Shown here one piece after another: positions 1 to 59,600 of a stretch of 64,000 bases of DNA (the first letter of the stretch is position 1; the number at the start of each line of letters is the position of its first letter). The stretch is from NCBI GenBank assembly GCA_965205605.1, contig CBDBHE010000007.1, positions 83,479 to 147,478 on the forward strand, written 5' to 3'. This stretch comes from Spirochaetota bacterium. Lineage in GTDB: Bacteria; Spirochaetota; UBA12135; COTS27; CBDBHE01. The notes beneath the pieces were generated by a model. The model had not been told where the DNA came from, did not search any database, and saw only the letters and a list, made by a program, of their open reading frames with translations. A program made the translations under genes and the position numbers.

Positions 1-2089
1 GAAAAATATACTCTTAGCTGAAGAATCCAAGTTTATCCCCGGCACTGCAGGAGACCCCCTCAAGGCAGTAAAAAACCTTCCTGGTGTTGTAAACACAGGC
101 TCTGCCATACTCGATGGCTTGTATGTAAGAGGGGGAAATCAAGGGGATGTGTTGTATACAATTGACGATATTAAAATTGGAAATCCATATCATAACATAG
201 GATTTTATTCTGTATTTGCTTCTGAAATGATTGATAGTACTGATTTTTATCCGAGTGCTTATCCTTTTGATTTTGGAAATACCCAAGGAGCCGCCATTAA
301 TATTTTAAGTCGCTCCGATAATCCTCAAGAAATTTCAGGAGTGGTTGATTTGAATATAGGCATCGCTTTTGCTAATTTAATTATTCCTTTAATTAAAAAT
401 AAATTAGATCTTTACACTAGTTTTAAACGCTCTAATTATGAAATCTATCTTGCTATTGCAAAAAGTATCCCTGAGATTCCAAGAAACCTAATTGATTTTC
501 CTGCCCCTGTTTTTTTTGATAACTACAATAAACTTAGCTGGAAAATTGATTCTAAACAATCACTTTCTTTGCTTGTTATTGGAAAATACGATGATATTAA
601 AATAGCAACCTCTTTTCCGTTTGAAGATGAGGATAGTAAAACAAATGATGTGCTCATTGAAAATGCTTTTAGAAATTATTGGAATACCGCTGCAGTTACC
701 TATTTATGGGATAGTGGGAAAATGAAAAACAAATTGATTGTTTCTCAACTTTTTGAAAGAAACAATGTCTTTTTATTTGGGAGCTCTTTTAGCAAAACAG
801 ATGCGACCAAATGGAGCATTCAAGATAAATGGAGTTATCAAATGAACGACTCCTTCAACTTTAAAGCAGGAGTCGAATACACTTATGACGAAGAAACGGG
901 AGAAGGAAGAATCTTTAGTCAAAGAGAAGTCTTTGAAAATCAACAAGTAGCCAATAGAGTTACAAGTGATTATGCTGCTATTACCAATACCATTGAGTTT
1001 TTTTCTTCTGGAAATTTAAAAAGCCTCGATGACTTTAACAGGCACTCTATCAGTTTTTATGGGGGTTTCGACTGGAAATTAAATCAATTCATTTTTTCTC
1101 TTGGAGCTTTTTCCACTTACAAGATTTCAGAAAAATTCAATTATTTTATTGACCCTCGTTTAGAAATCACCTACCTTGTTAATGATCATTACTCTATTTT
1201 CACACGTATTGGGAAGTATAGTCAACTACCTCCTTTAATTGAACAAATCCCTATGGAGTTTCCTAAAAAAATTGATGATAATATCACAAGCCCTTATATC
1301 GAGCATTACGTTTTAGGATTAGAAACAAAAAAGCTTCCTTTGGATATCAAAGGAGAACTTTATTACCAAAATGGAATCGATCAAATTTTACCCAATCCTG
1401 AGCTTGATCCGAGTAAAGATCTTGACCCAAAAACCAATCCAACCACTTTAAACTCAGGATATAATCGAGGATATGGAGCTGAAATTTTAATCAAAAAAAA
1501 ATTTTCAAAAAAACAATTTGGATGGCTTGCTTATACGTATTCTGTTGCCCAAAGATATGAATATAAAGAAAACTCAAGCGTACAAGAATGGATTTTTTTT
1601 AATGAAGATGTCACACATCAAGTTAATTTAGTTTACTCTTATAAAATAAATAAAAACTGGAGAATTGGGACAAGAGCTAATATAACATCAGGAAAACCAA
1701 GAACAGAGACTCTCCTTGTTTTCAATGATAAAGATAGTAATGGAAAAATTAACCGTAACGAACTCTCTTATCTAGATGATAATAATCATCGAAATCAAGC
1801 GAGAAATCCTTATAATTATCGTCTAGATTTTAGAGTGGATTATATTACCAAACTATTTGGAGGAGAGCTTAATTTTTATTTAGATTTTTGGAATATTGAA
1901 GGGTTTTTTCATCAAAATATTTTAGGCTATCAAAGCAGTATTAGTTACTTATCAAAAGAGGCTCCTAACCAACTAGGTCCAGGTGATTTCAACAGTGATA
2001 ATCAGCGAGTCGTCCCTACCAGTAAATTACAATCTACTAGTCAAGTACCCCCCTTTTTACCTTTATTAGGAGTGCAGTATAAATTTTAA
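1..2089 (+). CDS. TonB-dependent receptor-like outer-membrane beta-barrel protein; 5' end lies outside the window (partial)
   Basis: The reading frame is open from base 2, upstream of the listed ORF start at 119. The translation has a plug-domain-like motif, DPLKAVKNLPGVVNTGSAILDGLYVRGG. The protein is long, rich in beta-strand-type residues, and ends in an aromatic residue (..YKF), as outer-membrane barrels usually do. Confidence 0.6.
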   Translation, partial: KNILLAEESKFIPGTAGDPLKAVKNLPGVVNTGSAILDGLYVRGGNQGDVLYTIDDIKIGNPYHNIGFYSVFASEMIDSTDFYPSAYPFDFGNTQGAAINILSRSDNPQEISGVVDLNIGIAFANLIIPLIKNKLDLYTSFKRSNYEIYLAIAKSIPEIPRNLIDFPAPVFFDNYNKLSWKIDSKQSLSLLVIGKYDDIKIATSFPFEDEDSKTNDVLIENAFRNYWNTAAVTYLWDSGKMKNKLIVSQLFERNNVFLFGSSFSKTDATKWSIQDKWSYQMNDSFNFKAGVEYTYDEETGEGRIFSQREVFENQQVANRVTSDYAAITNTIEFFSSGNLKSLDDFNRHSISFYGGFDWKLNQFIFSLGAFSTYKISEKFNYFIDPRLEITYLVNDHYSIFTRIGKYSQLPPLIEQIPMEFPKKIDDNITSPYIEHYVLGLETKKLPLDIKGELYYQNGIDQILPNPELDPSKDLDPKTNPTTLNSGYNRGYGAEILIKKKFSKKQFGWLAYTYSVAQRYEYKENSSVQEWIFFNEDVTHQVNLVYSYKINKNWRIGTRANITSGKPRTETLLVFNDKDSNGKINRNELSYLDDNNHRNQARNPYNYRLDFRVDYITKLFGGELNFYLDFWNIEGFFHQNILGYQSSISYLSKEAPNQLGPGDFNSDNQRVVPTSKLQSTSQVPPFLPLLGVQYKF

Positions 2090-3174: not shown

Positions 3175-3270
3175 AATTTGGATAAAGTTTATCGTGAAAA
3201 TAAAAAATTAGCTTTAACTGAGCAAAAATATGAAGCAAGAAAAGAAATAGATTGAATTTTAGTGCTTTTT
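3175..3270. repeat. about 95 bp direct repeat, copy 1, upstream of the lyase gene 3401-6094
   Basis: aatttggataaagtttatcgtgaaaataaaaaattagctttaactgagcaaaaatatgaagcaag.. recurs at 6262-6355 with roughly 80% identity. It encodes an orphan C-terminal peptide, ..YRENKKLALTEQKYEARKEID*, and ends in agtgcttttttt. Confidence 0.7.
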
Positions 3271-3400
3271 TTTATATGTGTATTTTTCCTATAGAAAAAG
3301 TATGAAATATTTTATACTTAAATAAAGTTTAAAAAAAATAAAGCTTTAAGCATAATGTTATTATATATAGTCAAATATTTATAAAGAAGGGGTAAAAACA

Positions 3401-6094
3401 ATGTTTTATAAGAGTTTTTTGCTAAAAGGTCTATTTTTATGTTTATTGTTGCTAATAGTAGTACCAACTTTGCAGGGGCAAACGGATGCAGAAAAGAAAA
3501 AATCGGTAGATTACATTCGCTCTATGATGTTGCAGGGCTTATATTATAACGCGGAACCTAAAGCAGAAGTGTTAGGGTTAGGTCAAACAAAAGTTATTGT
3601 AAACGAAAAATCAAGAGCGATATATAACGGAAAAAACTTACAAAATATGGATTTAAATAGCGTCCATGCCTTTTTTGCCTCTGGTACCTACAAAAATATC
3701 AACAAGGACAATATTGTTGATTACCAACACAAATTGGTTGTATTAGCTTTTATTTACCATGGAATAGAAAAATTTTACTTACCACGATTTAAATTTAAAA
3801 ATGTAGAATCTGCTAAGAAACGCAAAGGTAATAAGGATGTACGCAAGCTTATTTTAGAGGGCATAAAGCTTATTTTATCCGAAAAACATCGACCTGGGCA
3901 TGCCTACCATGTGACATATTCTTATCACTACTATCCGAAATACACGACGACTACGATAAGTGCGGTGGCAACTTTATTGTTTGATGAATTCAACAAAAAG
4001 AATGACAATATGGATTTAATAGAAAAAAAAGAATTTGCTGAAGTGTTTAAGAAAATTAAAGATTACTGTAGAATTTTAGGATATGGGGGGGTGCAAATTA
4101 CAGGTGCTAACTGGGCTATTCGAGGCAGCTTTAATGCCCTTTTATATCTATCAGCTGTTAGCCAAGTGGAAGAAATGGAAGCCTTTATGAAGCAGCACGA
4201 TATTTCTATGAGGCGTTTAAATGATGAGGGCGTTACCTACGATTATGGTTTTTTTCATCACACTTATTGTAACTACTGGGGCAAATATGGTATTCATTAT
4301 TTTAAGTTAACCGCTGATTTAGCCATGCTATTGGAGGCCACACCGTGGAAATTTTCCACGTGGAAAAAACGTTTTTTGCGCAATTGCTTGTTAGATGGGT
4401 TTGGACCCCTGGTTTATCGAGGCAATATACTTGCCCTTGAAGGTGGCAAGGCTTCGCTGACGGGAGGCATTACTAAAGCTTACAGTTCACAATACTTAAA
4501 ACCCGTTGAAAAATTAATAAAATTGTGGGGCATTGATGAGTTTGGTGGCTCACGTAAAGACGAAGTACTGGCCTACATCAACAATTTTGATAGTAGTGCT
4601 GACCACAAGCCAGAAGATAGTAAATTAATCGAATCAGAAAACCACAAAGTATATTGGTATAGTGCTAAACAAGTACATCGACGCAAAAACTATGCTGTAC
4701 TAGTCGGTAGGCTTAATAAATGGGTTGGTTCACCTGAACGCGAACAAAGGGTACAACCCGATTTATCTTTTGCTACATCTTCTTACTATGCTTTTGGCTA
4801 CACATCATTTTTAACCAAAGGACCAGAGCATACCCATGCCAGAGCCGCTTGGGATTTTACCACACTTCCAGGTACTACTGTGGCAATTGGTATGCGTGGT
4901 ATTTATAAACTCAAACAAAATATAGAAACAAAGGTGCCATATTCTGGCGGCGTTTCCGATGGCATGTATGGGGTGGGTGGTTTTATTTGTGATGCTGGAA
5001 ATAAGGGAAATAATAGGCGGCATCCCGTTGTGTCTACCAAAGGCAATTTCTTTTTTGATGACGAAATAGTGATGTTAGGACAAAGTATTTCGCGCAAGTA
5101 TGATGTTTTTGAACCTTACCCAAGCCCACCCTGGAGCGATAATTCGGATAATCCTGTGTGGACTACCATCGACCAAACTGATGCTCGTACTTCGCTCACT
5201 TACAACTTAGGCGATAACTCTGCTACAAAAGTCATTCCTAAAATTTCCAATTCCGATCAAGGTACTTCTCTTAAAATAAAAACCAAAGGGGATGTGGCAT
5301 GGTTTCACCACGATGACAAAGGCTACCTTATTTTAGGAAAAAACAAAGCTATTGTGTTAGAGATGAAAAATTTTCCGGTGTACGAAGCTAGATTTTCCCT
5401 TGGTTCGTACACAGGCGCTCTTGTCGCATTGGGTGATCAAACACCTCCTCGGAAATTAAAAAATTTAGGTCGTTCTATTAAAAAAAAATTAATAAAAAAA
5501 TATGGCAGAAAAAAATTAAACGGATTTGCTACTATAAATAGCCCCGAGTTGAAAGTAATAAGGCAACTTCCCTTGATACGTCTTGCCATTGATCACGGCA
5601 AAAAACCTAAAAACGAGTCTTATGACTATGTGTTGCTACCCAATGTAACCGCTAAACAAGTTGAAAATTACGCAAAAAATTTGCCTTTTAACATTATTAT
5701 CAATAAAAAGGGTATTCAAGCAGTCGTGCATAAAAATCTTAATATGGCTCAAGTACTCTTTTATAAAAATGGCGGCAATATTAAATTTAAGCTTGGTGGT
5801 AAAAATATCGAATTAAAAGCTTCTACATACTCTGCTATTTTGCTAGCACGTGATAAAAATAATGAAAAAGCATATCGTATTTCAGTCTCCGAACCCACTT
5901 ATTTGGCAAGCTCTTTGAAAGTAACCATCAAAGGATTGGCCTTTTCTTTAGATACCAAAAAAACCAAAAAAAAAGCTGCTATAGCTACAAAAGTAAAAGG
6001 GAATGACAAAAGCCAAATGACTTCCATAAGTTTTAAACTTTCAAAGAAAAACATAACCGATAAAAGCATAACTGCTCATCTCATTTTGTTGTGA
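3401..6094 (+). CDS. secreted polysaccharide lyase, family 8-like (hyaluronate/chondroitin AC/xanthan lyase family)
   Basis: N-terminal Sec signal peptide (MFYKSFLLKGLFLCLLLLIVVPTLQG). Contains PL8-type blocks: an aromatic catalytic region (YDYGFFHHTYCNYWGKYG), a W..LPGTT block (AWDFTTLPGTTVAIG) and a C-terminal YDYVLLPNV block comparable to ..GYMLIPNV.. of hyaluronate lyases. GC content is clearly above the genomic background. It is a paralogue of 22356-24908 and 51518-53971. Confidence 0.6.
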   Translation: MFYKSFLLKGLFLCLLLLIVVPTLQGQTDAEKKKSVDYIRSMMLQGLYYNAEPKAEVLGLGQTKVIVNEKSRAIYNGKNLQNMDLNSVHAFFASGTYKNINKDNIVDYQHKLVVLAFIYHGIEKFYLPRFKFKNVESAKKRKGNKDVRKLILEGIKLILSEKHRPGHAYHVTYSYHYYPKYTTTTISAVATLLFDEFNKKNDNMDLIEKKEFAEVFKKIKDYCRILGYGGVQITGANWAIRGSFNALLYLSAVSQVEEMEAFMKQHDISMRRLNDEGVTYDYGFFHHTYCNYWGKYGIHYFKLTADLAMLLEATPWKFSTWKKRFLRNCLLDGFGPLVYRGNILALEGGKASLTGGITKAYSSQYLKPVEKLIKLWGIDEFGGSRKDEVLAYINNFDSSADHKPEDSKLIESENHKVYWYSAKQVHRRKNYAVLVGRLNKWVGSPEREQRVQPDLSFATSSYYAFGYTSFLTKGPEHTHARAAWDFTTLPGTTVAIGMRGIYKLKQNIETKVPYSGGVSDGMYGVGGFICDAGNKGNNRRHPVVSTKGNFFFDDEIVMLGQSISRKYDVFEPYPSPPWSDNSDNPVWTTIDQTDARTSLTYNLGDNSATKVIPKISNSDQGTSLKIKTKGDVAWFHHDDKGYLILGKNKAIVLEMKNFPVYEARFSLGSYTGALVALGDQTPPRKLKNLGRSIKKKLIKKYGRKKLNGFATINSPELKVIRQLPLIRLAIDHGKKPKNESYDYVLLPNVTAKQVENYAKNLPFNIIINKKGIQAVVHKNLNMAQVLFYKNGGNIKFKLGGKNIELKASTYSAILLARDKNNEKAYRISVSEPTYLASSLKVTIKGLAFSLDTKKTKKKAAIATKVKGNDKSQMTSISFKLSKKNITDKSITAHLILL

Positions 6095-6261: not shown

Positions 6262-6355
6262 AATTTGGCTCAAAGCTTATCGTGAAAATAAAAAATCGAC
6301 TTTAACTAGACAAAAATATAAGAAAAAAAGCAGATTGAATCTTAGTGCTTTTTTG
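6262..6355. repeat. about 95 bp direct repeat, copy 2, downstream of the lyase gene 3401-6094
   Basis: aatttggctcaaagcttatcgtgaaaataaaaaatcgactttaactagacaaaaatataag..cagattgaatcttagtgctttttt is homologous to 3175-3270. Confidence 0.7.
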
Positions 6356-6506
6356 TATTACATAGCTGGCATAAAAAAAAGACGAAGATGAGAAAAAACA
6401 ATCGTTATTTTCAATTGTTTATTTTCTCTAAATAAGAAAGAATCACTACATCTCTTGTCCCAAGAGGTTTTATTAATAGAAGATAAACATAAGAATCTTT
6501 TTTTTT

Positions 6507-12320: not shown

Positions 12321-13469
12321 TTAACTTACCCTTTGATAAACTGAGAAAACATTCTCAGCATATCTCTTCCAAGAATATTTTTTAATCGATTCAAGAGCAT
12401 TTTGACTTATTTTTTTTCTAAAATGATTATTTTCTTTAACTGTCTTCATTTTATCTCTAAGCTCATTGACATTCCCTACACTCACTATCAAACCATCATA
12501 ACCATCTTTAATAATGGAACCACTGTTTTCCGTGACAACACAAGCCAATCCCTCCCCCATCGCTTCATAAACAGATTTTGAAGACCCTTCTAAAAAAGAA
12601 GGAAACACATAAATATCACATTTTTTAAAATATTCTTTAGTAGAAATAAACCCTGGTAAAAGAACATTTTTAAAATTTTTTCTTTGCAAAATTTTTTTAA
12701 TATCTGGATAAAGTCTACCACATAAATGTAATTTATCGTGAAAAAAAATTGGGTCTTCCCAAGCTTTTAAGAGAAGATCAATTCCTTTTCGCTTATTAAG
12801 ATTGCCTGCAAAACAGTAGTGCAGAGTTTTCTTTTTTGATAAAACAAGTTTTTTATTATTAATTGTTGTGTCTGTACCAAAAGGAACCATTGTTATTTTA
12901 TTGTTAGGAAGACCTATTTTTAACAATTCTTTTTTAACGAAATTGGAAGGCACGATAACATGACTGGCCATTTTAAAACTCTCAAGCTCCATTTTACAAA
13001 TAGAATCAAAAAAACTAAGTTGTCTATTTTTTCCATACTGTTTCAAGAGTCTTTTATTTGTTAGTGAAGGAGCAATAGGGAGGTCTAAAATAACTTTATA
13101 TTTTTTTTTTTTCAAGGTAGCAATAATCTTTGGAGAAATCTCCCATAAGTGAAAAAGACAAGGCCCTTCTAAAGAAAAAGATTTTAAAGATTTAAGAAAA
13201 AAAAAATTAAAAAGCTTAATATCAAAAAATCGATGATTAAAGTTTGTCTGCCAATAAATCCGATAAGCATTTAGAATCCTTGGTACATGTCCAAAAATAC
13301 CCATATGTAAGTGCTTTTTGCTTAAAACGCTTACCGAAGGGGCCAACCCACGACTAAATGAATAGTGATTAATATTTTGTTGATTCAAAAAATCGAAAAT
13401 TTTACTAGTCCTAAAGCCTATATTTCCTTTTCTACCAATAAATGAATTAACTACATTAAAAATATTCAC
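12321..13469 (-). CDS. glycosyltransferase, GT4 family
   Basis: GT4 motif FPSFLEGSSKSVYEAMGEGLACVVTENSGSII. Length 382 aa. Confidence 0.65.
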   Translation of the reverse strand: MNIFNVVNSFIGRKGNIGFRTSKIFDFLNQQNINHYSFSRGLAPSVSVLSKKHLHMGIFGHVPRILNAYRIYWQTNFNHRFFDIKLFNFFFLKSLKSFSLEGPCLFHLWEISPKIIATLKKKKYKVILDLPIAPSLTNKRLLKQYGKNRQLSFFDSICKMELESFKMASHVIVPSNFVKKELLKIGLPNNKITMVPFGTDTTINNKKLVLSKKKTLHYCFAGNLNKRKGIDLLLKAWEDPIFFHDKLHLCGRLYPDIKKILQRKNFKNVLLPGFISTKEYFKKCDIYVFPSFLEGSSKSVYEAMGEGLACVVTENSGSIIKDGYDGLIVSVGNVNELRDKMKTVKENNHFRKKISQNALESIKKYSWKRYAENVFSVYQRVS

Positions 13470-22167: not shown

Positions 22168-22355
22168 AAGCATTGCTTGTTTATAGTTTTTTCAGATTTA
22201 TCAAAGTGAAAAATAAAATAAACAATCAAAAAAAAGTAATGGTTTAAAATATTAAATTAAATTAAATTAAAGTTACAATAGAGTGTAATAAATGATATTG
22301 TATAATTTACACACCTTAAATCAATATTAGAGCATTATAATAGGAGAAAAAAAAT

Positions 22356-24908
22356 ATGAATTTTAATCGTAGAAATTTTTTAAAAACAACTACTATCAGT
22401 AGTGGTCTTTTATTATTACCATTTAGTTTAGAAAAAAAATTATGGGGACTGGAGTCTTCGGGGTCTTTACTTAAAGACAAACAAGCCTTTTTGGATAAGT
22501 TAAGACTTGGGTTTTCAAAAACTGGCTATCGAAAAAATACTGATGAAGGATTGGAAGTGAAGGCTCTTGTAAAGGAAGGCCTTAAATCTCTTAATAAAAA
22601 AATCAGCGAACAGGGGACATTAATAGAAAAACCAATCAATTTAAAAAACATCCCAACGTATTGTAGGTATGCTTGGGCCCTTGCTATATTATCAAAAGGA
22701 AAAAATGAGAGTGATGGAGAGATTTATGGGGTAATAAAGAAAAAGATGTATCGTATGGCTATAATCATTCATAGGGTAGAAGTAACAAAGCCCAATAGTT
22801 ATAAACGTTTTCATTTTTCGTGTTTTGCCATACCGAATACTTTTGTTAATGTGTATTTTTATAATTTTAAAGATATGGTTGGAGTAGAGAAAGGGACCAT
22901 AAAAGACCCCTTAATCGTAAAAGGACACGACGTAATTGTCGAACTAGCAAAGCAGGCTTGGACACAACCGTATAGGAATGATGAAACTGATAAAAATCCA
23001 TTCCAAATTGCTCGTTTTAAAGGGCATGTTTGGTGGGTAACGGCTAATGCTATCACTTATAGGCCTGTCTATCCAGTTGCAGTTGCTTTAAATTCTATTG
23101 TTGGTATTGATGTATTGGTGGAGGTCTGTAATAGAGCCATTGATTTTCTTTACCCAGGAAACAAAAAAGACCCATTTTGGGAGGAAGGGTTTACCTCTGA
23201 TGGTCTTGGATGGGGACATGGCACTCAAAATTATACATTTGGTTACCCTGCACAAGGGGTTCAGGCACTACTTGACATGAAAAAAAATTTCCTCAATTCA
23301 CCTTGGGATAAAGGAAGTCGTGAACAAACTAGAACTAATGTGAAAATATTTTACGTACTCAAAGCTTTTGTACGTGGATCTCAGTGGATGAGGTACAAGG
23401 GTTTCATACACCCAGTAACAGGACGTAATTGTAAACAATATGTTGAGCCAAAAGCTAGAGATGCTTCTAAAAGTAAATTTGTTGGTATACTTAAAAATAT
23501 ATTAAATCATTTTGTAGATTATCTCCCTTCGGTTATTAAAGATAAACAAAAATTTGGAGTGTATGAAAAAGAAATATTAGATTTAAAAAAAGAAATGAAA
23601 AGTAAAACAGGTGTTTTTATGGATGATTATAAAGGTGTTTATACAGGAACAAAATATTTTTGGTGCAATGACCTGATGATTCGTAAAAGTAGAAATTTTT
23701 ACTGTACCATTAATATGGCTTCATCAAGAGTGAGTGGTATTGAGTTTGGGTCTGATGATAAAAATCAAAATGATATGTATCATTATCATTCTGCAGCTGG
23801 TTCGACTTTTTTTTCTAAGGAAGGTTATGAAGCCTGCCATGCTCTTGGGGGCCATAATCTTACTGCTTTACCAGGGGTGACGGCTAAACGTGGGGAAAAT
23901 AGTGACATTTTTAGTATCACTACTTGGAAGGGTTTTAATAGTTTCCACAACTTTTGTGGTGGCACAGGGTTACGTGGGCGTAATGCATGTTGTGGTTTTA
24001 TCCAAGAGTTTAATACAAGGAATGAAAAAATTAAAAGCCTACCTAAGGTTGTAATGGGGGTGTATGTGAAGAAAGGTTATTTTATTTTTGATGACATGAT
24101 GCTTGCTTTAGGGACTGGCATTAAATTAACCTCATCTGGATCTAACAAATTCCCGATATGCACAACGGTCGAAACTGCTTATTTTGAAAACCCAATAACC
24201 GTTACAGAAAATGGGAAATCAAAAACTTACGATACAACAAAAAAAAATAACGTTAATTTTGTTTTAAAGAAAAGTAAAACAGATGCCCTCAATTGGATCG
24301 AGCAAGAAAATAAATTTGCGTATGCTCCCCTCAGTAAACATAACAAGAGTGCTGTAGAGGTGGAAATTGGTGATCGAAAAACGATTTGGAACAGACAAAG
24401 TTATCCAAATCAGAAGAAAAAAAACTTACCTAAAAATATGAACGTTCTTGATATTCGTATTAATCACGGCAAGAGCCCATTTAAGGGCGGATATGCGTAT
24501 TTAGTCTATATGGGTGATAAAAAAGCTTCTCAGTCATTTAAAACATCCCCTATACAAGTCATTTCTAATAGCAGTAAAGTACAAGCGGCTTTGTATTCTA
24601 ATGGAAAAAATAGTCAAGTGGTACAGGCTGTTTTTTATAAAAGTTCTACTTTAGAAATCACAAAAGATTTTAAAATAAAAGCTACTATGCCATGTATTTT
24701 TACGTTTGAAGAGGAAAATGGTAGTGTGAAAGTGACTTTGTGTGATCCCCTATTCGATGTTTCTTTAAAGTCTATAAAAATTTCAATAACAAAGCCAATT
24801 GAAGGCAAAGCGGTTAAGAAGAAAAAAAAATGGTATGAAATCAACCTAAAGAGTGCTAGAAAGCCTTATGTAGGTCGACCAGTGAGTGCAAATTTCAAAT
24901 TAGTTTAG
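22356..24908 (+). CDS. polysaccharide lyase family 8-like protein with a twin-arginine (Tat) signal peptide
   Basis: The N-terminus MNFNRRNFLKTTTISSGLLLLPFS matches the Tat motif RRxFLK. PL8-type blocks are present: DGLGWGHGTQNYTFGYP, LTALPGVTAKRGE and a C-terminal AYLVYMGD. GC is above background. Confidence 0.55.
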   Translation: MNFNRRNFLKTTTISSGLLLLPFSLEKKLWGLESSGSLLKDKQAFLDKLRLGFSKTGYRKNTDEGLEVKALVKEGLKSLNKKISEQGTLIEKPINLKNIPTYCRYAWALAILSKGKNESDGEIYGVIKKKMYRMAIIIHRVEVTKPNSYKRFHFSCFAIPNTFVNVYFYNFKDMVGVEKGTIKDPLIVKGHDVIVELAKQAWTQPYRNDETDKNPFQIARFKGHVWWVTANAITYRPVYPVAVALNSIVGIDVLVEVCNRAIDFLYPGNKKDPFWEEGFTSDGLGWGHGTQNYTFGYPAQGVQALLDMKKNFLNSPWDKGSREQTRTNVKIFYVLKAFVRGSQWMRYKGFIHPVTGRNCKQYVEPKARDASKSKFVGILKNILNHFVDYLPSVIKDKQKFGVYEKEILDLKKEMKSKTGVFMDDYKGVYTGTKYFWCNDLMIRKSRNFYCTINMASSRVSGIEFGSDDKNQNDMYHYHSAAGSTFFSKEGYEACHALGGHNLTALPGVTAKRGENSDIFSITTWKGFNSFHNFCGGTGLRGRNACCGFIQEFNTRNEKIKSLPKVVMGVYVKKGYFIFDDMMLALGTGIKLTSSGSNKFPICTTVETAYFENPITVTENGKSKTYDTTKKNNVNFVLKKSKTDALNWIEQENKFAYAPLSKHNKSAVEVEIGDRKTIWNRQSYPNQKKKNLPKNMNVLDIRINHGKSPFKGGYAYLVYMGDKKASQSFKTSPIQVISNSSKVQAALYSNGKNSQVVQAVFYKSSTLEITKDFKIKATMPCIFTFEEENGSVKVTLCDPLFDVSLKSIKISITKPIEGKAVKKKKKWYEINLKSARKPYVGRPVSANFKLV

Positions 24909-25133
24909 AAAAAGAAAAAGAAGAACGTTTCCTGGTGGTTTTTTTCTATTGTTGATGAAGGACTTGCTAAAAGTATAATTTAGAAAATCCTAACTAGACT
25001 ATATAGACACTTATCATAGACACTTAATTTGTCAGAGGAAACTTGTTTTTTTTTGACATCTACCAAATTATTTGGAGTTTCTAATGTTTAACAGAAACTT
25101 CCCGAGGAAATCATACGAAAATAAATATATTAG

Positions 25134-25265
25134 TATCCAGAAGAGCTTGTAAAAAAAGGGAAGGTCGTTGTTTATGATGAGGATGATATTGTTTTTCTAA
25201 AAGATGGCAATCAGAAAATAAAAAATATTGTGATTTCACAAAAAGAAAATTTGAATATTTTATAG
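25134..25265 (+). pseudogene. orphan C-terminal gene fragment of unknown identity, 43 codons with no start codon
   Basis: The open frame YPEELVKKGKVVVYDEDDIVFLKDGNQKIKNIVISQKENLNIL* begins directly after an in-frame TAG. It lies in a 430-bp spacer downstream of the Tat-lyase gene. Confidence 0.25.
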
Positions 25266-25342
25266 CAAGAACATTTTTATAAAATTAGATGGATTTGGTT
25301 TCAATTTATTTTTATTGGTGTAAATTTGTAGGTTGCTATACA

Positions 25343-49330: not shown

Positions 49331-49500
49331 AGATTTATGATTTAATACTTTATATTTTCTAAAATTAAAGCAGAATCTATTGTTAGGTATAAATATTTAT
49401 TTTATTAGATCAAATAACCCTAAAGGAAATCCATATGATATTTAAATGTTTATTAGTCTTAATAGCGATGCAGTTAAATGACTTGTTTTCTTATGAAGCT
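49331..49500. repeat. duplicated 5' module, copy A: upstream block plus signal-peptide coding region of gene 49435-51408
   Basis: agatttatgatttaatactttatattttctaaaattaaagcagaatctattgttaggtataaata followed by ATGATATTTAAATGTTTATTAGTCTTAATAGCGATGCAGTTAAATGACTTGTTTTCTTATGAA. It is near-identical to 51456-51583. Confidence 0.75.
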
Positions 49501-51408
49501 GATACTAAATCCAACACCTCTCAAACAAAAAAACTATACAAAAAATCCTTACCCATTAAAACTAAAATCCTATCCATTAACAAACCTATCTCTTTTACTG
49601 AAGAAGTAACAGATAATTTCCATATTGTCTATAATAAAAATAAAAAACACGCACTCTATGATCACAATATAAAAATAGAAGAGGAGGCTCTTTTAACACC
49701 ATTTACAAAAAAAAAAAAAATGAAACCCTTATTTTTGTATTATAAAAAAGGATATCTAGCTAATAATGCGATTGTCTCTATCTATATTCATAAAATTAAA
49801 ACTAAATCAACTCTAGGAGGCAAAAATGGATTAATATTAGGGGACGCTTCTATCAGTGTGAAAACAAGCGAGACTCTATCTTCAGTAAGCATAAGACATA
49901 TTAAAAATAAAAAGGAAAATTACATTTTTTATTTTCCTGGGATACCTAAAGATACTAAAGATGGATTAGCACTCTCAGCCAAAATGTCCTCAAACGATAC
50001 ACTACAATGGTTCTTAACTTATAATTCATTTTCTTATAGAGGAGAATGTTTATTAAAGCAAACTTCTAAATACTACCCCATTGGTCTCTATCTAACACCC
50101 TCTAAACATCCACAGGAGATAAGTTCTTTTACTATTCGAAAGCTACTACAATCAAAGGAATTAAAAGCTAAATATGCCTTTAAAGAATTAACACATAAAT
50201 ATAACCCAAAATTCCATCCCCAGTATCAAAGCAGTCAATTAAAGTACGATCGTAACCACCCTGCTACAAAATACCTCGTGCTTAAATCCATACAAGGGCC
50301 TTTACACAAAGAAGAGATCGCAGGTTTAGAGAATTATTTATTAAACTATGGCAAACCCACTATTAACTGGCTAAATTATTATTTTAGAAGGACTTATATG
50401 CCCTATATGTTGGAATGGGTATGGGAAAAAAAGAATAACCAAAAATTAATCAACCAATCTATCCAAATGGCACAAAGTGTCATTGCCCATAGAAGTGATA
50501 AACTTGGGGACGAAGGTATTTATACTATAGGTCAGGTCCCTGTATGGCCCCATTACAGGGGTGTACAATTCTTAAAAGGAAAGATGACCTTGAGTTCTGG
50601 TTTCGCATCATTTGGTTCTGCTCTTTCATGGATAACTGTCCCTTCTAAACTAATTGCAAATAATAAAAACCTATGGGATCAAACAACAAGTATAAATAAC
50701 AAAAACTATAAACAAATAGCCTATGAGTTAATTGATGAAGCAATGGTGACTATTGATTTTACTTTAAAACACTATCTCGAAAAGAAAACAAAACTCTTAA
50801 AATCCCCTGCATGGGGAGCAGAACCTGAAGGTTGGGTTCCTCAGTGGAATCGTTCACTTCCTTTTATAACGGCCTTAATACCTCTCATTGATGCGATGAA
50901 AGCTTTTAAAATCCACCCTAAAAAAATAGTATTATTAGAAGAAATTGTAAAAAGATACATTTCGTATTTTTTATCCTATGTCAAGTACTACGATCACAAT
51001 GGAAAAACCGTACTCAACTATCCATATGGAGACTACCGTACTGTGAATAATCCAGAACAATCTGAAGACATCGGTCATGCCGGTTTTGATGGGCGTCAGC
51101 TTCAGATGATCTACAAAGCGAAAAGATATAGCTTAAAGGAAAAATTTCCAAAAGCCTATGCTAACACACTGGCAGATATCGTGTGTAAAGGAAATGGTGT
51201 CTTTAAAAAACGTTTAAAAGGAGACAGAACCTTTGCTTTTACCTATTTTGCAGGATTAGAAGGGCTTATCTGGCTTGCTCACTGGCGTCCTGAGCTCTAC
51301 GAGCACGTCATTGAATACACCTATAACAAAGTTCTCAAAAAGAGGCTCGATTCCAGGTTTGTCTGGGAAGTCCTTAAATTAAAAGAACAAAAACAGCAAA
51401 AAAAATAA
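49435..51408 (+). CDS. secreted hypothetical protein sharing its promoter and signal-peptide module with the PL8 lyase gene downstream; possibly a polysaccharide-lyase-associated alpha-helical protein
   Basis: Signal peptide MIFKCLLVLIAMQLNDLFSY. Length 657 aa. GC above background. No catalytic block confidently recognised. Contains a 14-A tract at 49707-49720. Confidence 0.5.
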   Translation: MIFKCLLVLIAMQLNDLFSYEADTKSNTSQTKKLYKKSLPIKTKILSINKPISFTEEVTDNFHIVYNKNKKHALYDHNIKIEEEALLTPFTKKKKMKPLFLYYKKGYLANNAIVSIYIHKIKTKSTLGGKNGLILGDASISVKTSETLSSVSIRHIKNKKENYIFYFPGIPKDTKDGLALSAKMSSNDTLQWFLTYNSFSYRGECLLKQTSKYYPIGLYLTPSKHPQEISSFTIRKLLQSKELKAKYAFKELTHKYNPKFHPQYQSSQLKYDRNHPATKYLVLKSIQGPLHKEEIAGLENYLLNYGKPTINWLNYYFRRTYMPYMLEWVWEKKNNQKLINQSIQMAQSVIAHRSDKLGDEGIYTIGQVPVWPHYRGVQFLKGKMTLSSGFASFGSALSWITVPSKLIANNKNLWDQTTSINNKNYKQIAYELIDEAMVTIDFTLKHYLEKKTKLLKSPAWGAEPEGWVPQWNRSLPFITALIPLIDAMKAFKIHPKKIVLLEEIVKRYISYFLSYVKYYDHNGKTVLNYPYGDYRTVNNPEQSEDIGHAGFDGRQLQMIYKAKRYSLKEKFPKAYANTLADIVCKGNGVFKKRLKGDRTFAFTYFAGLEGLIWLAHWRPELYEHVIEYTYNKVLKKRLDSRFVWEVLKLKEQKQQKK

Positions 51409-51455: not shown

Positions 51456-51583
51456 AGATTTATGATTTAATATTTTATATTTTCTAAAATTAGAGTAACA
51501 TCTATTGTTAGATATAAATGATGTTTAAATACTTATTAGTCATATTAGTCATGCAGTTAACTGTCTTGTTTTCTTATGATAAA
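51456..51583. repeat. duplicated 5' module, copy B: upstream block plus signal-peptide coding region of gene 51518-53971
   Basis: agatttatgatttaatattttatattttctaaaattagagtaacatctattgttagatataaat followed by gATGATGTTTAAATACTTATTAGTCATATTAGTCATGCAGTTAACTGTCTTGTTTTCTTATGAT. Confidence 0.75.
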
Positions 51584-53971: not shown

Positions 53972-54202
53972 AAAAACTAAAAAATGGTGCAGGCCTGTGG
54001 GATACGGGTAATTATTATTATTATTTATTGTAAAGGAAGGATAAAAAAAAAGTCTTCTTTTGAGGGCGTGCTGGAGATAAATTAGATTTTGATAAAAATC
54101 GATTCATCGTTCTTTAAAAATAAAAAAATTAGTTGTATAATTAACCCTATTAATAATGATATAAAGAATTATTTAAAAGAAAAGAAACAAGGAGATGAAA
54201 TT

Positions 54203-55381
54203 ATGAAAAACAAACAATTAATTTGTTGCACTTTGTTGAGTATTTTGATGTTTGGTAATCTGCTCGCAAAGAAGGCATTTTCAGACCAGAAACCAGAATA
54301 TTTTGGTGACCCCAATTTTATTTTTGACGAATCCAAGTATGATGAAAATTATCCTGACATGAAAGAGTGGGCGAAAGCAGGTGTTAAGGGAGGGATCCCT
54401 TACAGGGGGACGCTTCCGATTATTGCACGCATTACTACAAAAGATAATATTCAAAAAGCTATTGATCAAGCCAATCCTACTAAACCGTCAGTAATTCTAC
54501 TCGCAAATGGGATCTACACAATCACTAATTCTGTGAAAATGAAGTCTAAGATCATCTTACAGGGCACAGATAAAAACAAAACAATCATCAATGTGAACAT
54601 GCGCCAAAAGTGGAAAGGATGGGGCAGAAAAAAAATCGGTATTTACTTTCGTAAGGTCAATTATGCTGGATTGGAAAACCTGACTGTACGTTTTGACTCC
54701 GGTGGAATTGAACCTGTAGATAACAAAAATTATTCAGACAAATGGCGCAAGGGTATGATGAATAATGATGTAAAAAGAGATGACTTTTATGTGGCGCTTG
54801 TAAAATTCAGGGAAGCTACAAACTGTTGGGTGGATGATTGTATGTTGCTTAATTCTGGTACCGACCCAGTAATTACTTCAGGTAACGACATGCACCTTAC
54901 TTTCCGAAATAACTTTGTGGATCGTGCACACAATAAAGGCGCAGGAGGTAATGGCTATTTTACCATGCGTGGACAGTATACATTAATATGTGGCAATACT
55001 ATCAAGCGTCTACGTCATTTTGCTATTGAAGTAGGTGCTAAATATTGCGTGGTAGTAAACAATAAATTTGAAGTGGATGTAAACTTTCACCAAAGAGACA
55101 AGGGTCACAATTTGGTGGAAGGCAATAGTATACGCATCCCTGAATGGCACCGACACGCTGCCACCCATAGCGGCTGGGCGGTATTTGCAGCAGGTGGTTC
55201 TATTCACGGTGCTACAGGTCCAGGTAACCGTATGTTTAACAATACCAGCGATCTACGTAATTCTGGCCCTAGATTTGCAAATCCGGACACAGTCTATAAA
55301 ACCCAAGGAAAATCAATCAGAGTCCACAGCACTACACCACCAAAACATGGCACTCTTTATGCTGTAAAGCTTGACTTTTAA
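54203..55381 (+). CDS. secreted right-handed beta-helix (pectate-lyase fold) protein, putative polysaccharide lyase or glycosidase
   Basis: The ORF is open from 54089, but ATG 54203 has the SD aaggagatgaaatt upstream and is followed by the signal peptide MKNKQLICCTLLSILMFGNLLA. Repetitive ..N.G.D..I..GN..H-type segments appear. GC is roughly 40-45% by eye, the highest in the window. The protein ends in ..KLDF. Confidence 0.5.
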   Translation: MKNKQLICCTLLSILMFGNLLAKKAFSDQKPEYFGDPNFIFDESKYDENYPDMKEWAKAGVKGGIPYRGTLPIIARITTKDNIQKAIDQANPTKPSVILLANGIYTITNSVKMKSKIILQGTDKNKTIINVNMRQKWKGWGRKKIGIYFRKVNYAGLENLTVRFDSGGIEPVDNKNYSDKWRKGMMNNDVKRDDFYVALVKFREATNCWVDDCMLLNSGTDPVITSGNDMHLTFRNNFVDRAHNKGAGGNGYFTMRGQYTLICGNTIKRLRHFAIEVGAKYCVVVNNKFEVDVNFHQRDKGHNLVEGNSIRIPEWHRHAATHSGWAVFAAGGSIHGATGPGNRMFNNTSDLRNSGPRFANPDTVYKTQGKSIRVHSTTPPKHGTLYAVKLDF

Positions 55382-56361
55382 CTAATTAGCACGAAAAATC
55401 GTTTCCTAAATTAGTATGTAGAACTTAGGTACTAGATTTTCTTTTAGGATTTCAATAAGTAGTGTAAATGAATAGAAGATTTTTTACAAAATCGACCAAG
55501 ATAAAATTGTACTAAATACTGATTAATGTGTATACTTGCTAAAAAAGCACCCCATTTTCAATATTTATGATTTTTAAGAGAACAACTTTAGTTAAATTGA
55601 TAGAAGTAATTCGAAATTACCCAATTTTAATTTTATCTTTTTATCATTCAGCTCAAATTACAATCATATCGCTCTGGGGACTGCGATACCACTGGCACAT
55701 ACATTGAGAATGTTTAATTTTAAAGGTTTTATTTCATTTAAAAAGATGATGAATCAAAAATTATAAATGGCTCTTCTTTGCTATACTGATTGCGTTTATT
55801 TTTGCAACACCAAATGCTGTTTTGGAGTATAAGAAATTTTGGTCTGGTTTCTACTGGAACTACACAATAGCTCCAATCTGGGGTGGACAATTAGGTGATA
55901 TAACTTAATTACAAAAACTACCTATTACTTTAAACAGCAAGATGATTTTTCAAAAATGGGCTAAACTTAATCTTAAGCCTAGCACATTGATCTATAAGAG
56001 TCCTTTAATATACTTTGCCAATAAGTAATGTCACTAAAAGATTAACCATATAAATTAAATATGCCGTACTTTGGTGGAAGAGCAAGAAATCAGTTAAAAT
56101 AGGCTAAAGAAAATAATAATAAATACAGAGATGGAAAGAAAAAAGATACTAATTAATGGGAGTTATACTACTAAAGCTCTTTCAAGGAGTAAACCCTGAC
56201 ATCATTTCTTCAGCTCATTATAATCGTTTTTTAGGTGTTAAAAGAGGGTATCTTAAAGTAAAAGACAATTCAAAAATTGAAGCATCATATTAATATTGTG
56301 CATTTTCACATAGAGTTTAGGCCGTGTAAAGAAAGCGAATTGGAAAAGGAAAAAACATGGT

Positions 56362-56434
56362 TGGGTGAGGACAGAATCGAACTGCCGACATCTACCTTGT
56401 AAGGGTAGCGCTCTACCAATTGAGCTACTCACCC
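56362..56434 (-). tRNA. tRNA-Val (anticodon UAC)
   Basis: Reverse complement GGGTGAGTAGCTCAATTGGTAGAGCGCTACCCTTACAAGGTAGATGTCGGCAGTTCGATTCTGTCCTCACCCA folds as a cloverleaf. Anticodon loop CTTACAA. CCA not encoded. Confidence 0.85.
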
Positions 56435-56670
56435 AAGATTTTGTTAAATAGTGCTATCATATAATGAAAAGACTCAATGAGTCAAACTTTTTTCAAAAAA
56501 TAATTTCTTATCATTTTTTTATCTTTTAAAACAAAAAACATACTTCAATTTTTAAAAAAATCTTATAAGATAAGAAAAGCAAAGCAAAATGTTCCAAATA
56601 AAAAAAAATTCTTTAAAACCAAAGTTGTATCAAATAACAAAAAAAAGTTATAATTTTTTTTAAAAATTCA

Positions 56671-59600
56671 ATGACTGATTTTGTTCACTTACACACTTAT
56701 TCTGACTACTCTCTTTTAAAAGGAATGTCTCCCATCTCTCAGCTGACTCAAAAAGTAGCTGAAGAAACAATGCCTGCTTTGGCTTTAACTGATTTTGGAA
56801 ATCTCTATGGAGCGATGGAATTTTATACTTCCGTTGAAAAAATCAATCAATCAATCAAAACGCCAATTAAACCTATTTTAGGATGTGAAATCTTAATTAA
56901 TACCAATCATGCTTTTTTTCCTCTACTTCTTTTGGTGAAAAATTTAAAAGGATATAAAAACTTAATTAAATTAATTTCAACGGCTTGTCTTAAAAAAAAA
57001 TCAACCGACCCTTTCCCTTCTATTAAAAAAAAAGTACTTGAAAATTATAAAGAAGGACTCATCGCTCTTTCTGCTGGTCTTGAAGGTGAAATTGCTTGTT
57101 TAATCCTTCAAAACAAATCTCCTGAAAAAGTAATCGATTTTTATGCTTCTTTATTTGGAAAAGATCACTTTTTTTTAGAAATACAAAACCATCAGAATAA
57201 AGATGAACTTCGTATTCGTGAAAAATTAAGCCAGCTTTCTAAAACAATGAAGCTTCCTTTAGTTGCCACTAATGAAGTGCGCTACCTCAATAAAGAAGAT
57301 GCCTCAGCTCATGAAATTTTACTACGTATTCAATCAAAAGAGACGATTTTTGAAACAGAAAAAAATGGAAAAATCACTCAATTTTCTACTCCTGGTACAG
57401 GGTATCACTTTAAAACTTATGAAGAAATGTTAGTTAATTTTCCAGATCAAAAAGAAGCTTTAAAAAACACTGTCAAAATTGCAGAAATGTGTCATTTAAC
57501 TTTTCCAAAAACAAAAATTCACTACCCTCTTTTTACAGTCCCCAAAAAAAAAAGCGAGTTTGAATTTTTAAAAGAAGAGTGCTTAAAAAGATTAAAAGAA
57601 AAAAAGCAAACTCTTAGTGAAACTTATTTAAACAGACTTGAATACGAACTTGATATTATCAAACGAATGGGCTTCTCTTCTTACTTTCTTATTACAGCTG
57701 ATTTTATTAATTTTGCTAAAAAAAAAGGAATCCTCGTAGGGCCAGGTAGAGGTTCAGCAGCAGGATCTTTGGTGGTGTATGCCATGGGGATCACTTCTAT
57801 TGATCCAATTGAAAATGGACTCCTTTTCGAACGTTTTTTAAATCCTGAAAGAATCACCCTTCCTGATATTGATATTGATTTTCAAGATAATCGAAGAGAA
57901 GAAATTATTGAATATTGTAAAAAAAAATATGGCACCAATCGAATCGCTCAAATTATTACTTACGGAAAATTAAAAGCAAGAGCTGTTTTTAAAGATATCT
58001 CAAGAGTTTTTAAAATTGACTTTAACAAAGCCAATCAAATTTCATCTCTCATTACTCAAGGAAAAACTCTAAAAACAACTTATGAAGAAAATGATGCTTT
58101 CAAAGACACCATTATAGGTAATATCTTACTACAAAATGTTTATCGGTATGCTTTAAAATTAGAAGGCCTTACGCGACACACCGGGGTTCATGCTGCTGGA
58201 GTGATTATTTCCGATCGGAGTATTGATTCTTACGTTCCTCTGACAAAAGACGAAGAAGGCAATATTTTGACTCAATATGAAGGGGGTCTTCTTGAAGAAA
58301 AATGTGGTTTAATAAAAATGGATTTTTTAGGCCTCAAAACACTTTCTATTTTACAAGAATGCATCACTCTTATTAAACAAACTAAAAAAGAAACCATTGA
58401 TTTAGAATCAATTTCCTTAAAAGATCTCAAAACCTATTCCTTGCTTTCAAAAGGAAACTCTTTAGGTGTTTTTCAGTTTGAATCTTCAGGGATGAGGCAA
58501 TGTCTAAAAGAATTAAAACCCAATTGTCTTGAAGACTTAACAACGATGAACGCCATGTATCGTCCAGGTCCAATGAGTTGGATTTCTATTTATATCGCTA
58601 AAAAACATCATAAAAAACCACGTTTTGAAGACCCAAAGCTTAAATCAGATTTTGAAAAACATGAAAAACTTTTAAAAAAATATCCCGTATTAGAAGAAAT
58701 CTTAAAAACAACCAATGGAATCCCTATTTACCAAGAACAAATTATGGAAATAGGTAAAAACTACGCTGGGCTTTCTTTTGGAAAAGCAGATTTGATGAGA
58801 CGAGCTATGGGGAAAAAAAAAATTAAAGAACTCGCTAAAATCGAAAAGGAATTTATCAAAGGAGCTGAAAATAAAGGTTATCAAGGCAAAGATTCAAAGT
58901 TTTTATTTGAAAAAATTATTATGCCTTTCGCCGGCTATGGTTTTAATAAGTCTCATGCTGTTTGTTATGCCTATATCGCTTATCAAACCGCTTATTTAAA
59001 AGCTAATTATACGGCTGAGTTTATGACTTCTTTACTTAATTCAGAATGTGATAATACTGACAAAATTAAATTTTATCTCGATGAAGCCACTCTTTTAAAA
59101 ATTAAAGTCCTTCCCCCAGATATTAATAATTCTAGCATTAACTTTAAAGTCATTCCCCCCCACATCACCTATGCTTTAAGGGCCATTAAAGGTGTGGGAA
59201 AAAATGTTAGCTTACAAATCATTGAAAACAGAAAAACAAAAGGAACCTATACTTCCTTTGAAGATTTCCTTAGAAAAAATAACAATAATCTTAACAAGCA
59301 AGTCGTAGAAAACTTAATCAAAGTAGGTTCTTTTCTTTCTTTAGGCGTTAAAATACAAACACTCCTAGAGGCATACCCTTTAATCACCGAAAAACTAAAT
59401 GAAGAAGAAACAATGAAACGAGGTGGACAAGTAACCCTTTTTGATAACAAAAAACTTTTAGATCAAACAGCTCACGAAGACCAATTTAAAAAATTACTAA
59501 TCCCTAAAGCAGACTTCATTGATAATTTAAAAGAATATGAAAAACAAGCTTTAGGGTTTAATTTACGCCATAATGAAGTCATCCAACATTCCAAAGAAAT

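Follow-up and report, generated by a model that had tools for sequence, protein, structure and literature searches.

Three PL8-type lyase homologues from separate clades within 50 kb of a Spirochaetota genome

Three open reading frames (ORFs), here called P1, P2, and P3, in a stretch of 64,000 nucleotides (nt) from contig CBDBHE010000007.1 of a Spirochaetota bacterium (the whole of this stretch being referred to as the window) encode homologues of polysaccharide lyase family 8 (PL8). All three lie on the + strand, within 50 kb of one another (Table 1). They are best explained, with a probability of roughly three in four, as exported polysaccharide lyases that each come from an anciently separate clade, that independently entered or persisted in this lineage, and that are now turning over. 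The window has a GC content of 30.5%, and its 39 ORFs of at least 150 amino acids (aa) were entered into the family searches and composition statistics described below.

Family membership and separate clades

The Lyase_8 domain of Pfam was matched by all three proteins (E-values of 3e-26, 4e-33, and 9e-48 for P1, P2, and P3, respectively; 92.8, 115.3, and 163.4 bits against a curated cut-off of 27), as was Lyase_8_C (37.2, 35.3, and 38.1 bits; curated cut-off of 22). That is, each protein contains the central super-sandwich and the C-terminal beta-sandwich domains that characterize PL8 in CAZy. The N-terminal Lyase_8_N domain was recognized in P1 alone (27.4 bits; cut-off of 24), and the N-terminal halves of P2 and P3, despite the absence of a Pfam match, can be aligned to the family across its Asn and His/Tyr blocks. 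A preliminary description of the window had proposed these ORFs, at coordinates that proved exact, as mutually homologous PL8-type lyases with common motif blocks, and the blocks GxN(W), HH/GH...Y(G), LPG(T/V/I)T, FFFD, and (I/V)(D/N)H are indeed present. The divergence is greater than the 25–35% identity estimated there, with BLASTP giving 21% for P1/P2 (E = 5e-9, C-terminal halves only), 24% for P1/P3 (E = 1e-25), and 23% for P2/P3 (E = 5e-20).

Among solved structures, the best relative of all three in a PDB sequence search is 1cb8, the Pedobacter chondroitinase AC, to which P3 is nearest (E-values of 4e-35, 3e-17, and 3e-9 for P3, P1, and P2, respectively); the top sequence matches of P1, at E ~1e-17, include both xanthan lyase and chondroitinase AC. 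P1, the one protein of the three that was modeled, gave an AlphaFold (AF2) model from 13 sequences with a mean predicted local distance difference test score (pLDDT) of 66.7 and a predicted template modeling score (pTM) of 0.74. The model consists of an N-terminal helical domain (aa 30–410), a central sandwich, a low-confidence insertion at ~aa 661–720, and a C-terminal sandwich; P1 also has a K-rich C-terminal tail. The helical N-terminal domain corresponds to the alpha/alpha-toroid of the family, and the model as a whole matches complete PL8 structures. In a Foldseek search of the PDB with this model, the top 36 matches were all PL8, with 1cb8 being the best (E = 1.5e-25), and other toroid-plus-sandwich lyases, namely PL17, PL23, PL33, and PL40, appeared only from E = 6.5e-8. 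A heparinase II/III-type identity (PL12/PL15/PL21), against which the preliminary description had set its PL8 assignment, was rejected: no Hepar_II_III match was found in Pfam, and the aligned catalytic blocks agree with the Pfam and Foldseek results in pointing to PL8. Thus, by homology and fold, P1, P2, and P3 are PL8-family homologues. No fourth PL8 was found among the unannotated ORFs of the window with a hidden Markov model built from 89 PL8 sequences.

With respect to known specificities, the three proteins scored 92.6, 90.1, and 151.7 bits (P1, P2, and P3) against the chondroitinase AC equivalog NF043001, the cut-off of which is 1000, and 60.6, 53.2, and 54.8 bits against the hyaluronate lyase HylB equivalog NF053732, the cut-off of which is 1350. 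Because these scores are so far below the cut-offs, hyaluronan, chondroitin, and heparosan, which had been named as possible substrates, remain guesses.

Each of the three has relatives in other genomes that are closer to it than the other two are. The best non-self relative of P3 is 46% identical, followed at ~39–43% by proteins of Tamlana, Flavobacteriaceae, Puteibacter, and metagenome contigs. P2 has a 96% identical counterpart (P0015, described below), and every other relative is at most 37% identical to it; the 80 loci kept from a genome scan with P2 are mostly from Bacteroidota, with some from Paenibacillus, Lentisphaerae, and Verrucomicrobiota. For P1, a word-index search was almost empty, and an exhaustive HMMER search of 1.84 billion representatives yielded only 13 matches at E ≤1e-30, the best being 32% identical (E = 3e-59), suggesting that P1 is nearly an orphan branch. 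In a neighbor-joining (NJ) tree of 88 sequences and 694 columns, each window protein is basal in its own separate clade. Since the tree gives each protein a clade of its own, and since the foreign relatives (46, 37, and 32% for P3, P2, and P1, respectively) are closer than the window paralogues are to each other (21–24%), the three appear to be members of three old PL8 subfamilies and not the products of local copying. Several acquisitions, one of the two origins offered in the preliminary description, therefore fit better than a recent expansion. Nor is the number of genes unusual, as had been thought: clustered PL8 genes are common elsewhere, and as many as five genes for PL8-domain proteins occur within 22 kb in Bacteroidota P2-type loci.

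The nearest relatives are mostly found in polysaccharide utilization loci of Bacteroidota. A P1-type relative sits behind two SusC/SusD pairs and a P3-type relative behind SusC/SusD and a sulfatase, and the neighbors of P2-type relatives include sulfatases, beta-helix, DUF4955, and DUF1961 proteins, chondroitin-ABC-type lyases, glycoside hydrolases (GH) of families GH95 and GH43, and more PL8 proteins. By this genomic association only, a sulfated chondroitin-like polysaccharide is a plausible substrate for the P2 type. PL8 clades have been reported to track substrate specificity (PMC7911691); if they do so here, the three clades, and hence P1, P2, and P3, may have three different specificities. 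A search of the literature for PL8 together with Leptospira, or with DUF4955, returned nothing useful.

The nucleotide composition of the three genes is less uniform than the preliminary description, which had regarded each as compositionally foreign, would suggest. GC at third codon positions (GC3) averages 0.232 over the 39 ORFs (standard deviation, 0.036), and codon bias (B) was calculated in the manner of Karlin, each gene against the other window genes. P1 is indeed an outlier (GC3 of 0.326, z = 2.65, rank 2 of 39; B = 0.281). P2 is only mildly raised in GC3 (0.266, z = 0.95) and ordinary in B (0.214), and P3 is ordinary in both (GC3 of 0.233, z = 0.05; B = 0.216); other genes of at least 600 aa have B values of 0.17–0.23, except for orf49435. 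At the P3 locus, composition is atypical in the two neighboring genes, namely orf49435 upstream (GC3 of 0.298, B = 0.297) and orf54089 downstream (GC3 of 0.348, B = 0.389, the highest B in the window). The overall GC of P1–P3, 33–37%, compares with 39–55% in related foreign loci.

These data also bear on the possibility of an old duplication within the lineage, in which an ancestral PL8 gene gave rise to two further copies, all three diverging to 21–24% identity and specializing without moving more than 50 kb apart. The common strand and the proximity of the three genes, the native-like codon usage of P2 and P3, and the basal position of each protein in its clade, not nested in a Bacteroidota group, would all be accounted for in this way. 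Nevertheless, such an origin is unlikely, given that foreign proteins (32–46%) are much closer to each of the three than these are to each other, that the clades differ in a catalytic basic residue, that the sister species has a clean empty P2 site, and that the N-terminal signals are of different types; the NJ tree with its three separate clades already points away from it.

Catalytic residues and the Lys-type clades

Residue columns were read in an 89-sequence MAFFT alignment, in which the key columns are conserved (Asn in 87, His in 88, Tyr in 88, and Glu in 85 of the 89 sequences). P1, P2, and P3 all conform, each having the Asn/His/Tyr/Glu set of PL8 with the Tyr nine residues after the His (Table 1), and the residues listed for P2 are invariant in a 13-sequence alignment. 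The proteins differ at the position equivalent to Arg288 of chondroitinase AC. All 26 sequences of the P2 clade have Arg here, as do 37 of 40 other PL8-like sequences, but Lys is found throughout the P1 clade (11 of 11) and the P3 clade (11 of 11), in the latter as part of an invariant GGK motif. Thus, of the catalytic Asn, His, Tyr, and Arg that the preliminary description had proposed to map, the first three are found in all of the window proteins and the Arg in P2 only.

In a HMMER alignment, His294, Tyr303, and Glu447 of P3 pair with chain residues 203, 212, and 349 of 1cb8, equivalent to His225, Tyr234, and Glu371 in precursor numbering. Furthermore, Lys350 of P1 pairs without gaps with the Arg located 54 residues past the catalytic Tyr in xanthan lyase 6f2p. 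The numbering used for chondroitinase AC and the roles of its His225, Arg288, and Arg292 are as published (PMC8733870). A PDB profile search with the P3 clade gave a match to 7R2X that was not extended into the N-domain of that structure.

In P1 and P3, the Arg is conservatively replaced by Lys rather than lost, and their PL8 membership stands. Because the Lys is clade-invariant (22 of 22) and the other catalytic residues are intact, the Lys-type clades probably represent an active variant under selection rather than decay. The contrary possibility, that P1 and P3 are no longer active lyases but carbohydrate-binding or otherwise repurposed proteins following the replacement of the Arg, draws on the presence of Lys in both, on the ongoing loss of P1 in the sister species, and on the absence of a Shine-Dalgarno-like sequence before P3, owing to the deletion of 42 nt that are present in the orf49435 cassette. 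This possibility is judged improbable, given the invariance of the Lys, the conservative nature of the exchange, the retention of Asn, His, Tyr, and Glu, and the integrity of both ORFs over more than 800 codons.

Three loci and a sister-species contig

A 67.7-kb metagenome contig in the European Nucleotide Archive (ENA), L081, is collinear with window positions 162–27901 at 88–92% DNA identity (blastn) and spans the P1 and P2 sites. The copy number in related genomes, recommended for checking in the preliminary description, could thus be read in one sister contig, which has no intact P1 or P2 and only a remnant of P1. The P1 site in L081, between the TonB-dependent-receptor gene with a small ORF and the first glycosyltransferase gene, holds an 86-codon fragment only. 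This unannotated, collinear remnant (L081 18087–18338, equivalent to window 3806–4063) is homologous to aa 136–221 of P1, with 49% amino acid and 72% nucleotide identity (E = 3e-13), the flanks being ~90% identical at the nucleotide level. Because the remnant is collinear and lies at the equivalent site, P1 predates the split of the two species and survives in the sister only as a decaying pseudogene, although P1 is a compositional outlier.

P1 is bracketed in the window by two copies of a ~95-nt direct repeat that are 85–87% identical over 48 and 39 nt (~86% overall); this repeat is absent from L081. The TonB-dependent-receptor-like protein encoded upstream ends in ...YKF, and its L081 orthologue, of 842 aa with a faint Plug match, is 95% identical to it. 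The 656-aa ORF upstream of P1 and the 657-aa ORF upstream of P3 are unrelated and do not represent a duplicated partner gene.

Downstream of P1 lies a 12-kb lipopolysaccharide (LPS)/O-antigen cluster encoding family 4 glycosyltransferases (GT4), an asparagine synthase, an epimerase, a Wzy-like polymerase/ligase, and a heptosyltransferase. This surface-glycan cluster is likewise diverging fast between the window and L081. One GT4 gene (window 12321–13469, 382 aa) is split in L081 (11072–12021) into genes of 115 and 208 aa, with ~200 bp missing, and orf7686-9263 has 74% protein identity to the L081 version while its neighbors are ~90% identical in DNA.

That P1 abuts this cluster raises the possibility that it, and possibly P2 and P3, trims or releases the surface polysaccharide of the bacterium itself, as do lyases in alginate or exopolysaccharide operons. 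This is quite improbable: P1 is convergent with the cluster and not co-oriented, the sister keeps the cluster (~89% DNA identity) and yet its P1 has decayed, P1 relatives behind SusC/SusD uptake pairs indicate a foraging context, and no biosynthesis genes are found near P2 or P3.

The P2 gene lies in a presence/absence block of 3,172 bp that brings its own flanking DNA (186 nt upstream and 433 nt downstream) and sits between the convergent stop codons of an Abhydrolase_2 gene and proA. The blastn junctions pair window 22169 with L081 2595 and window 25342 with L081 2593, so that ~1 bp replaces the block; in this empty site, the two stops are 4 nt apart (TAA-aaaa-TTA), and no P2 remnant was detected in L081 by tblastn.

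The N-terminus of P2 contains NRRNFLK (window 22356–22450) and barely reaches the TIGR01409 Tat-signal cut-off (16.8 vs 16.7 bits), whereas the N-termini of the Bacteroidota clade members that were examined are all of the Sec or lipoprotein type. On this ground, the export signal of P2 appears to have been exchanged. The assignment of two Sec signals and one Tat signal in the preliminary description is plausible, with the Tat signal just at the cut-off and the Sec-like hydrophobic N-termini of P1 and P3 judged by eye.

A near-identical copy of P2 is encoded on another contig, of 320,264 bp. Of 850 positions aligned between P2 and this protein, P0015 (845 aa), 33 differ; they are confined to aa 58–144 (29, a 5-aa indel included) and aa 554–564 (four), while the remaining ~750 residues are identical. 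A scan of genome collections found no locus above 37% identity, so that the source of neither P2 nor P0015 is represented there. GlmS, Dxs, HprK, PlsX, PurB, DnaE, and AsnB of the window, together with the hydrolase adjoining P2, are singletons at the 90% clustering level; because of this, and because P0015, like the window proteins, is absent from the contig index and the genome collection, P0015 is suggested to be a further, fourth copy within this assembly; alternatively, it may reflect a recent transfer between genomes. In either case, the P2/P0015 pair is a recent copy with recombination patches, mosaic or gene-conversion-like.

The sister contig also bears on whether the PL8 genes could be Bacteroidota DNA misjoined during assembly or binning, as their mostly Bacteroidota closest relatives and the raised GC3 of P1 and of the P3 neighbors might suggest. 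This is hardly credible, since an independent assembly, L081, reproduces the P1 and P2 flanks and holds a P1 remnant at the equivalent site, the GC of P1–P3 (33–37%) is below that of the foreign loci (39–55%), identity to foreign relatives is only 32–46%, and P2 and P3 have host-like codons.

The P3 block (49.4–55.4 kb) comprises three genes for secreted proteins. Upstream of P3, orf49435 encodes a 657-aa protein with no match in Pfam, NCBIfam, the PDB, or any fetched locus; its single-sequence AF2 model was unusable (pLDDT of 33). Its promoter/leader and signal-peptide cassette is repeated before and within the start of P3, with 91% identity over 64 nt upstream and 85% identity over the first 62 coding nt, which encode the signal peptide; the two genes are otherwise unrelated despite this common cassette. 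The P3 copy is without 42 nt that hold the Shine-Dalgarno-like AAAGGAAA. Only two copies of the cassette occur within the window, and apart from it no upstream element common to P1, P2, and P3 was found; a scan for promoters and terminators performed no better than on shuffled sequence.

Downstream, orf54089 encodes a right-handed beta-helix protein, homologues of which adjoin P2-type PL8 genes at five or more Bacteroidota loci (L080, L086/L008, L003, L026, and L010; tblastn identities of 28–38%, E-values from 1e-28 to 1e-45). Members of this family show sub-threshold matches to Pect-lyase_RHGA_epim (six of six) and Beta_helix (five of six), and a PDB profile search led to a pectinesterase (E = 2e-5). 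The unannotated family has a conserved motif, GDP.V.FD..K.D..YPQM..W..AGV.GGIPF. A tRNA-Val gene adjoins the block, and two of its three genes are compositionally atypical; no integrase or att site was found. Overall, it looks like a co-regulated secreted glycan-degrading unit that may be at least partly foreign.

Table 1. Positions in the window of the three PL8 genes and associated features, with candidate catalytic residues.
Feature	Position	Strand	Description	Evidence or context
TonB-dependent-receptor-like outer-membrane protein	119..2089	+	C-terminal part, cut by window start	upstream of P1
Direct repeat, upstream copy	3184..3278	+	~95 nt, bracketing P1	repeat search
P1	3401..6094	+	Lys-type PL8 lyase homologue, Sec-like signal, 897 aa; candidates N237, H287, Y296, E446; Arg288-equivalent K350	Pfam, PDB search, AF2 model
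Direct repeat, downstream copy	6272..6361	+	~95 nt, bracketing P1	repeat search
P2 block	22170..25341	+	presence/absence block with P2, 3,172 bp	blastn vs L081
P2	22356..24908	+	Arg-type PL8 lyase homologue, Tat-type signal, 850 aa; candidates N231, H288, Y297, E463; Arg288-equivalent R357	Pfam, alignment
Cassette, first copy	49331..49496	+	promoter/leader and signal peptide of orf49435	repeat search
orf49435	49435..51408	+	secreted, 657 aa, atypical codon usage	directly upstream of P3
Cassette, second copy	51456..51579	+	before and within P3 start	repeat search
P3	51518..53971	+	Lys-type PL8 lyase homologue, Sec-like signal, 817 aa; candidates N239, H294, Y303, E447; Arg288-equivalent K359 (within invariant GGK)	Pfam, 1cb8 alignment
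orf54089	54089..55381	+	secreted right-handed beta-helix protein, probable start M39 at 54203	downstream of P3
tRNA-Val(TAC)	56358..56435	-	3' end toward P3 block, ~1 kb away	ARAGORN, Rfam

Elsewhere in the window, housekeeping genes are numerous (dnaE, dxs, adk, hprK, fapA, glmS, plsX, proA, purB, folE, and lipB). The earlier picture of a compact housekeeping region holds to this extent, but P1 lies between the TonB-dependent-receptor-like gene and the LPS/O-antigen cluster. SusD had no match among the 39 ORFs, and the adjacent SusC/SusD pair of a Bacteroidota-type polysaccharide utilization locus (PUL) is accordingly lacking, the one related feature being the TonB-dependent-receptor-like gene that precedes P1. 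Because the window is without SusD and encodes full-length HprK and FapA, the host, a Shine-Dalgarno-using diderm, is not Bacteroidota-like. DnaE (window 56671–60216) is only 40% identical to its closest match in metagenome collections, and eight window ORFs (292–806 aa) have no Pfam or NCBIfam match; the host lineage, which is AT-rich, thus appears to be deep-branching and poorly sampled. Beside dnaE, an 806-aa ORF (60239–62659, - strand) is without a family or PL8-profile match.

Proposed function and significance

The homology, fold, conserved residues, clade structure, synteny differences, and repeats are shown by the data above, whereas enzymatic activity, substrate, co-regulation, and the direction and timing of any transfers are inferred. 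As with other PL8 enzymes, each lyase would most likely cleave a uronic-acid-containing polysaccharide by beta-elimination. In the mechanism proposed from the family, the Asn would neutralize the carboxylate, the Tyr and His would abstract and donate the proton, and the Glu and a basic residue would position the substrate, the latter being the canonical Arg in P2 and the clade-invariant Lys in P1 and P3. P1 and P3 would be exported by Sec and P2 by Tat, placing their activity outside the cytoplasm; the resulting oligosaccharides would presumably enter through outer-membrane receptors, such as the TonB-dependent receptor beside P1. The three genes differ in their histories: P1 is older than the split from the sister and is decaying there, P2 belongs to a block missing in the sister and has a mosaic copy on another contig, and P3 is part of a three-gene secreted block beside tRNA-Val, with a cassette in common with the upstream gene and a beta-helix partner downstream.

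Several points weigh against this account of three exported, independently acquired or retained lyases. Activity in all three clades is predicted from homology and any substrate is putative, and activity could be lowered or changed by the replacement of Arg by Lys at a residue that has been reported to matter in chondroitinase AC. The window contains no gene for GH88/GH105, a sulfatase, SusD, or uronate catabolism, and so a complete utilization pathway is not visible. The P2 block may have been gained in this lineage or lost precisely from that of the sister. The P3 block contains no integrase-sized ORF, att-like repeat, or tRNA-end repeat, and P3 has native-like codon usage, making the case for an island weak. 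In addition, the basal placements in the NJ tree could reflect an AT-driven amino acid bias of the host genome.

Of the known systems, chondroitinase AC of Pedobacter (Flavobacterium) heparinus (1CB8/1HM2) is the best structural match of the P1 model, with a target-normalized template modeling (TM) score of 0.71, and its His225, Tyr234, Asn175, and Glu371 have aligned counterparts in P1, P2, and P3. It differs in being only 16% identical to P1 (Foldseek) and in having Arg288 where P1 and P3 have Lys; P1, P2, and P3 are also 120–220 aa longer, with extended N-terminal regions and, in P1, the ~60-aa insertion and C-terminal tail. The xanthan lyases of Bacillus sp. GL1 (1J0M) and Paenibacillus (6F2P) are the best sequence matches of P1 (E-values from 2e-17 to 2e-16) and rank 2–6 among its structural matches, with the His/Tyr/Arg block of 6F2P aligning to P1 without gaps. 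Identity is nevertheless ~16–17%, the Arg corresponds to Lys350, and no xanthan-related genes surround P1.

The uncharacterized PL8 proteins of Bacteroidota PULs, for example in Bacteroides intestinalis (L072), Thermophagus (L086), and Mariniflexile ostreae, belong to the P2 clade (31–37% identity over 80–95% of the length) and have the invariant Asn/His/Tyr/Arg/Glu set in common with P2, and the beta-helix family of the P3 block is their recurrent neighbor. Their loci, however, contain SusC/SusD, sulfatases, chondroitin-ABC-type lyases, GH95, and GH43, none of which is found in the window, and they bear Sec or lipoprotein signals in contrast to the Tat signal of P2. PsMan8A of Paradendryphiella salina (7R2X, PL8 subfamily 4), a mannuronate-specific enzyme, is an example of PL8 with a non-glycosaminoglycan substrate. 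In P1, P2, and P3 alike, the match to this enzyme lies in the central domain (E = 3.5e-13 with P3), but it is fungal and belongs to another clade, with only its super-sandwich domain aligning to them by sequence.

PL8 enzymes are used for making defined glycosaminoglycan and gum oligosaccharides, and they shape host and algal glycan turnover. The three window clades contain none of the characterized PL8 proteins compared here, namely solved structures and NCBIfam equivalogs. A more far-reaching and speculative proposal, to which we assign well under even odds, is that P1 and P3 represent two uncharacterized Lys-type PL8 clades, perhaps with undescribed specificity, and that the host domesticates Bacteroidota-PUL-related lyase genes by means of its own promoter/signal-peptide cassettes and, in the case of P2, a Tat signal.

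Apart from the gene-flux contrast and the Lys-type clades, this is an ordinary set of carbohydrate-active enzyme genes, and gene gain and loss are well documented here. The Lys-for-Arg clades, the near-orphan P1, the promoter/signal-peptide cassette, and the contrasts between sister species merit attention. The locus offers a natural experiment on the gain, export-signal re-equipping, and loss of lyase genes between sister species, and the two Lys-type clades, given their systematic replacement of the active-site Arg by Lys, are reasonable targets in the search for new specificities.

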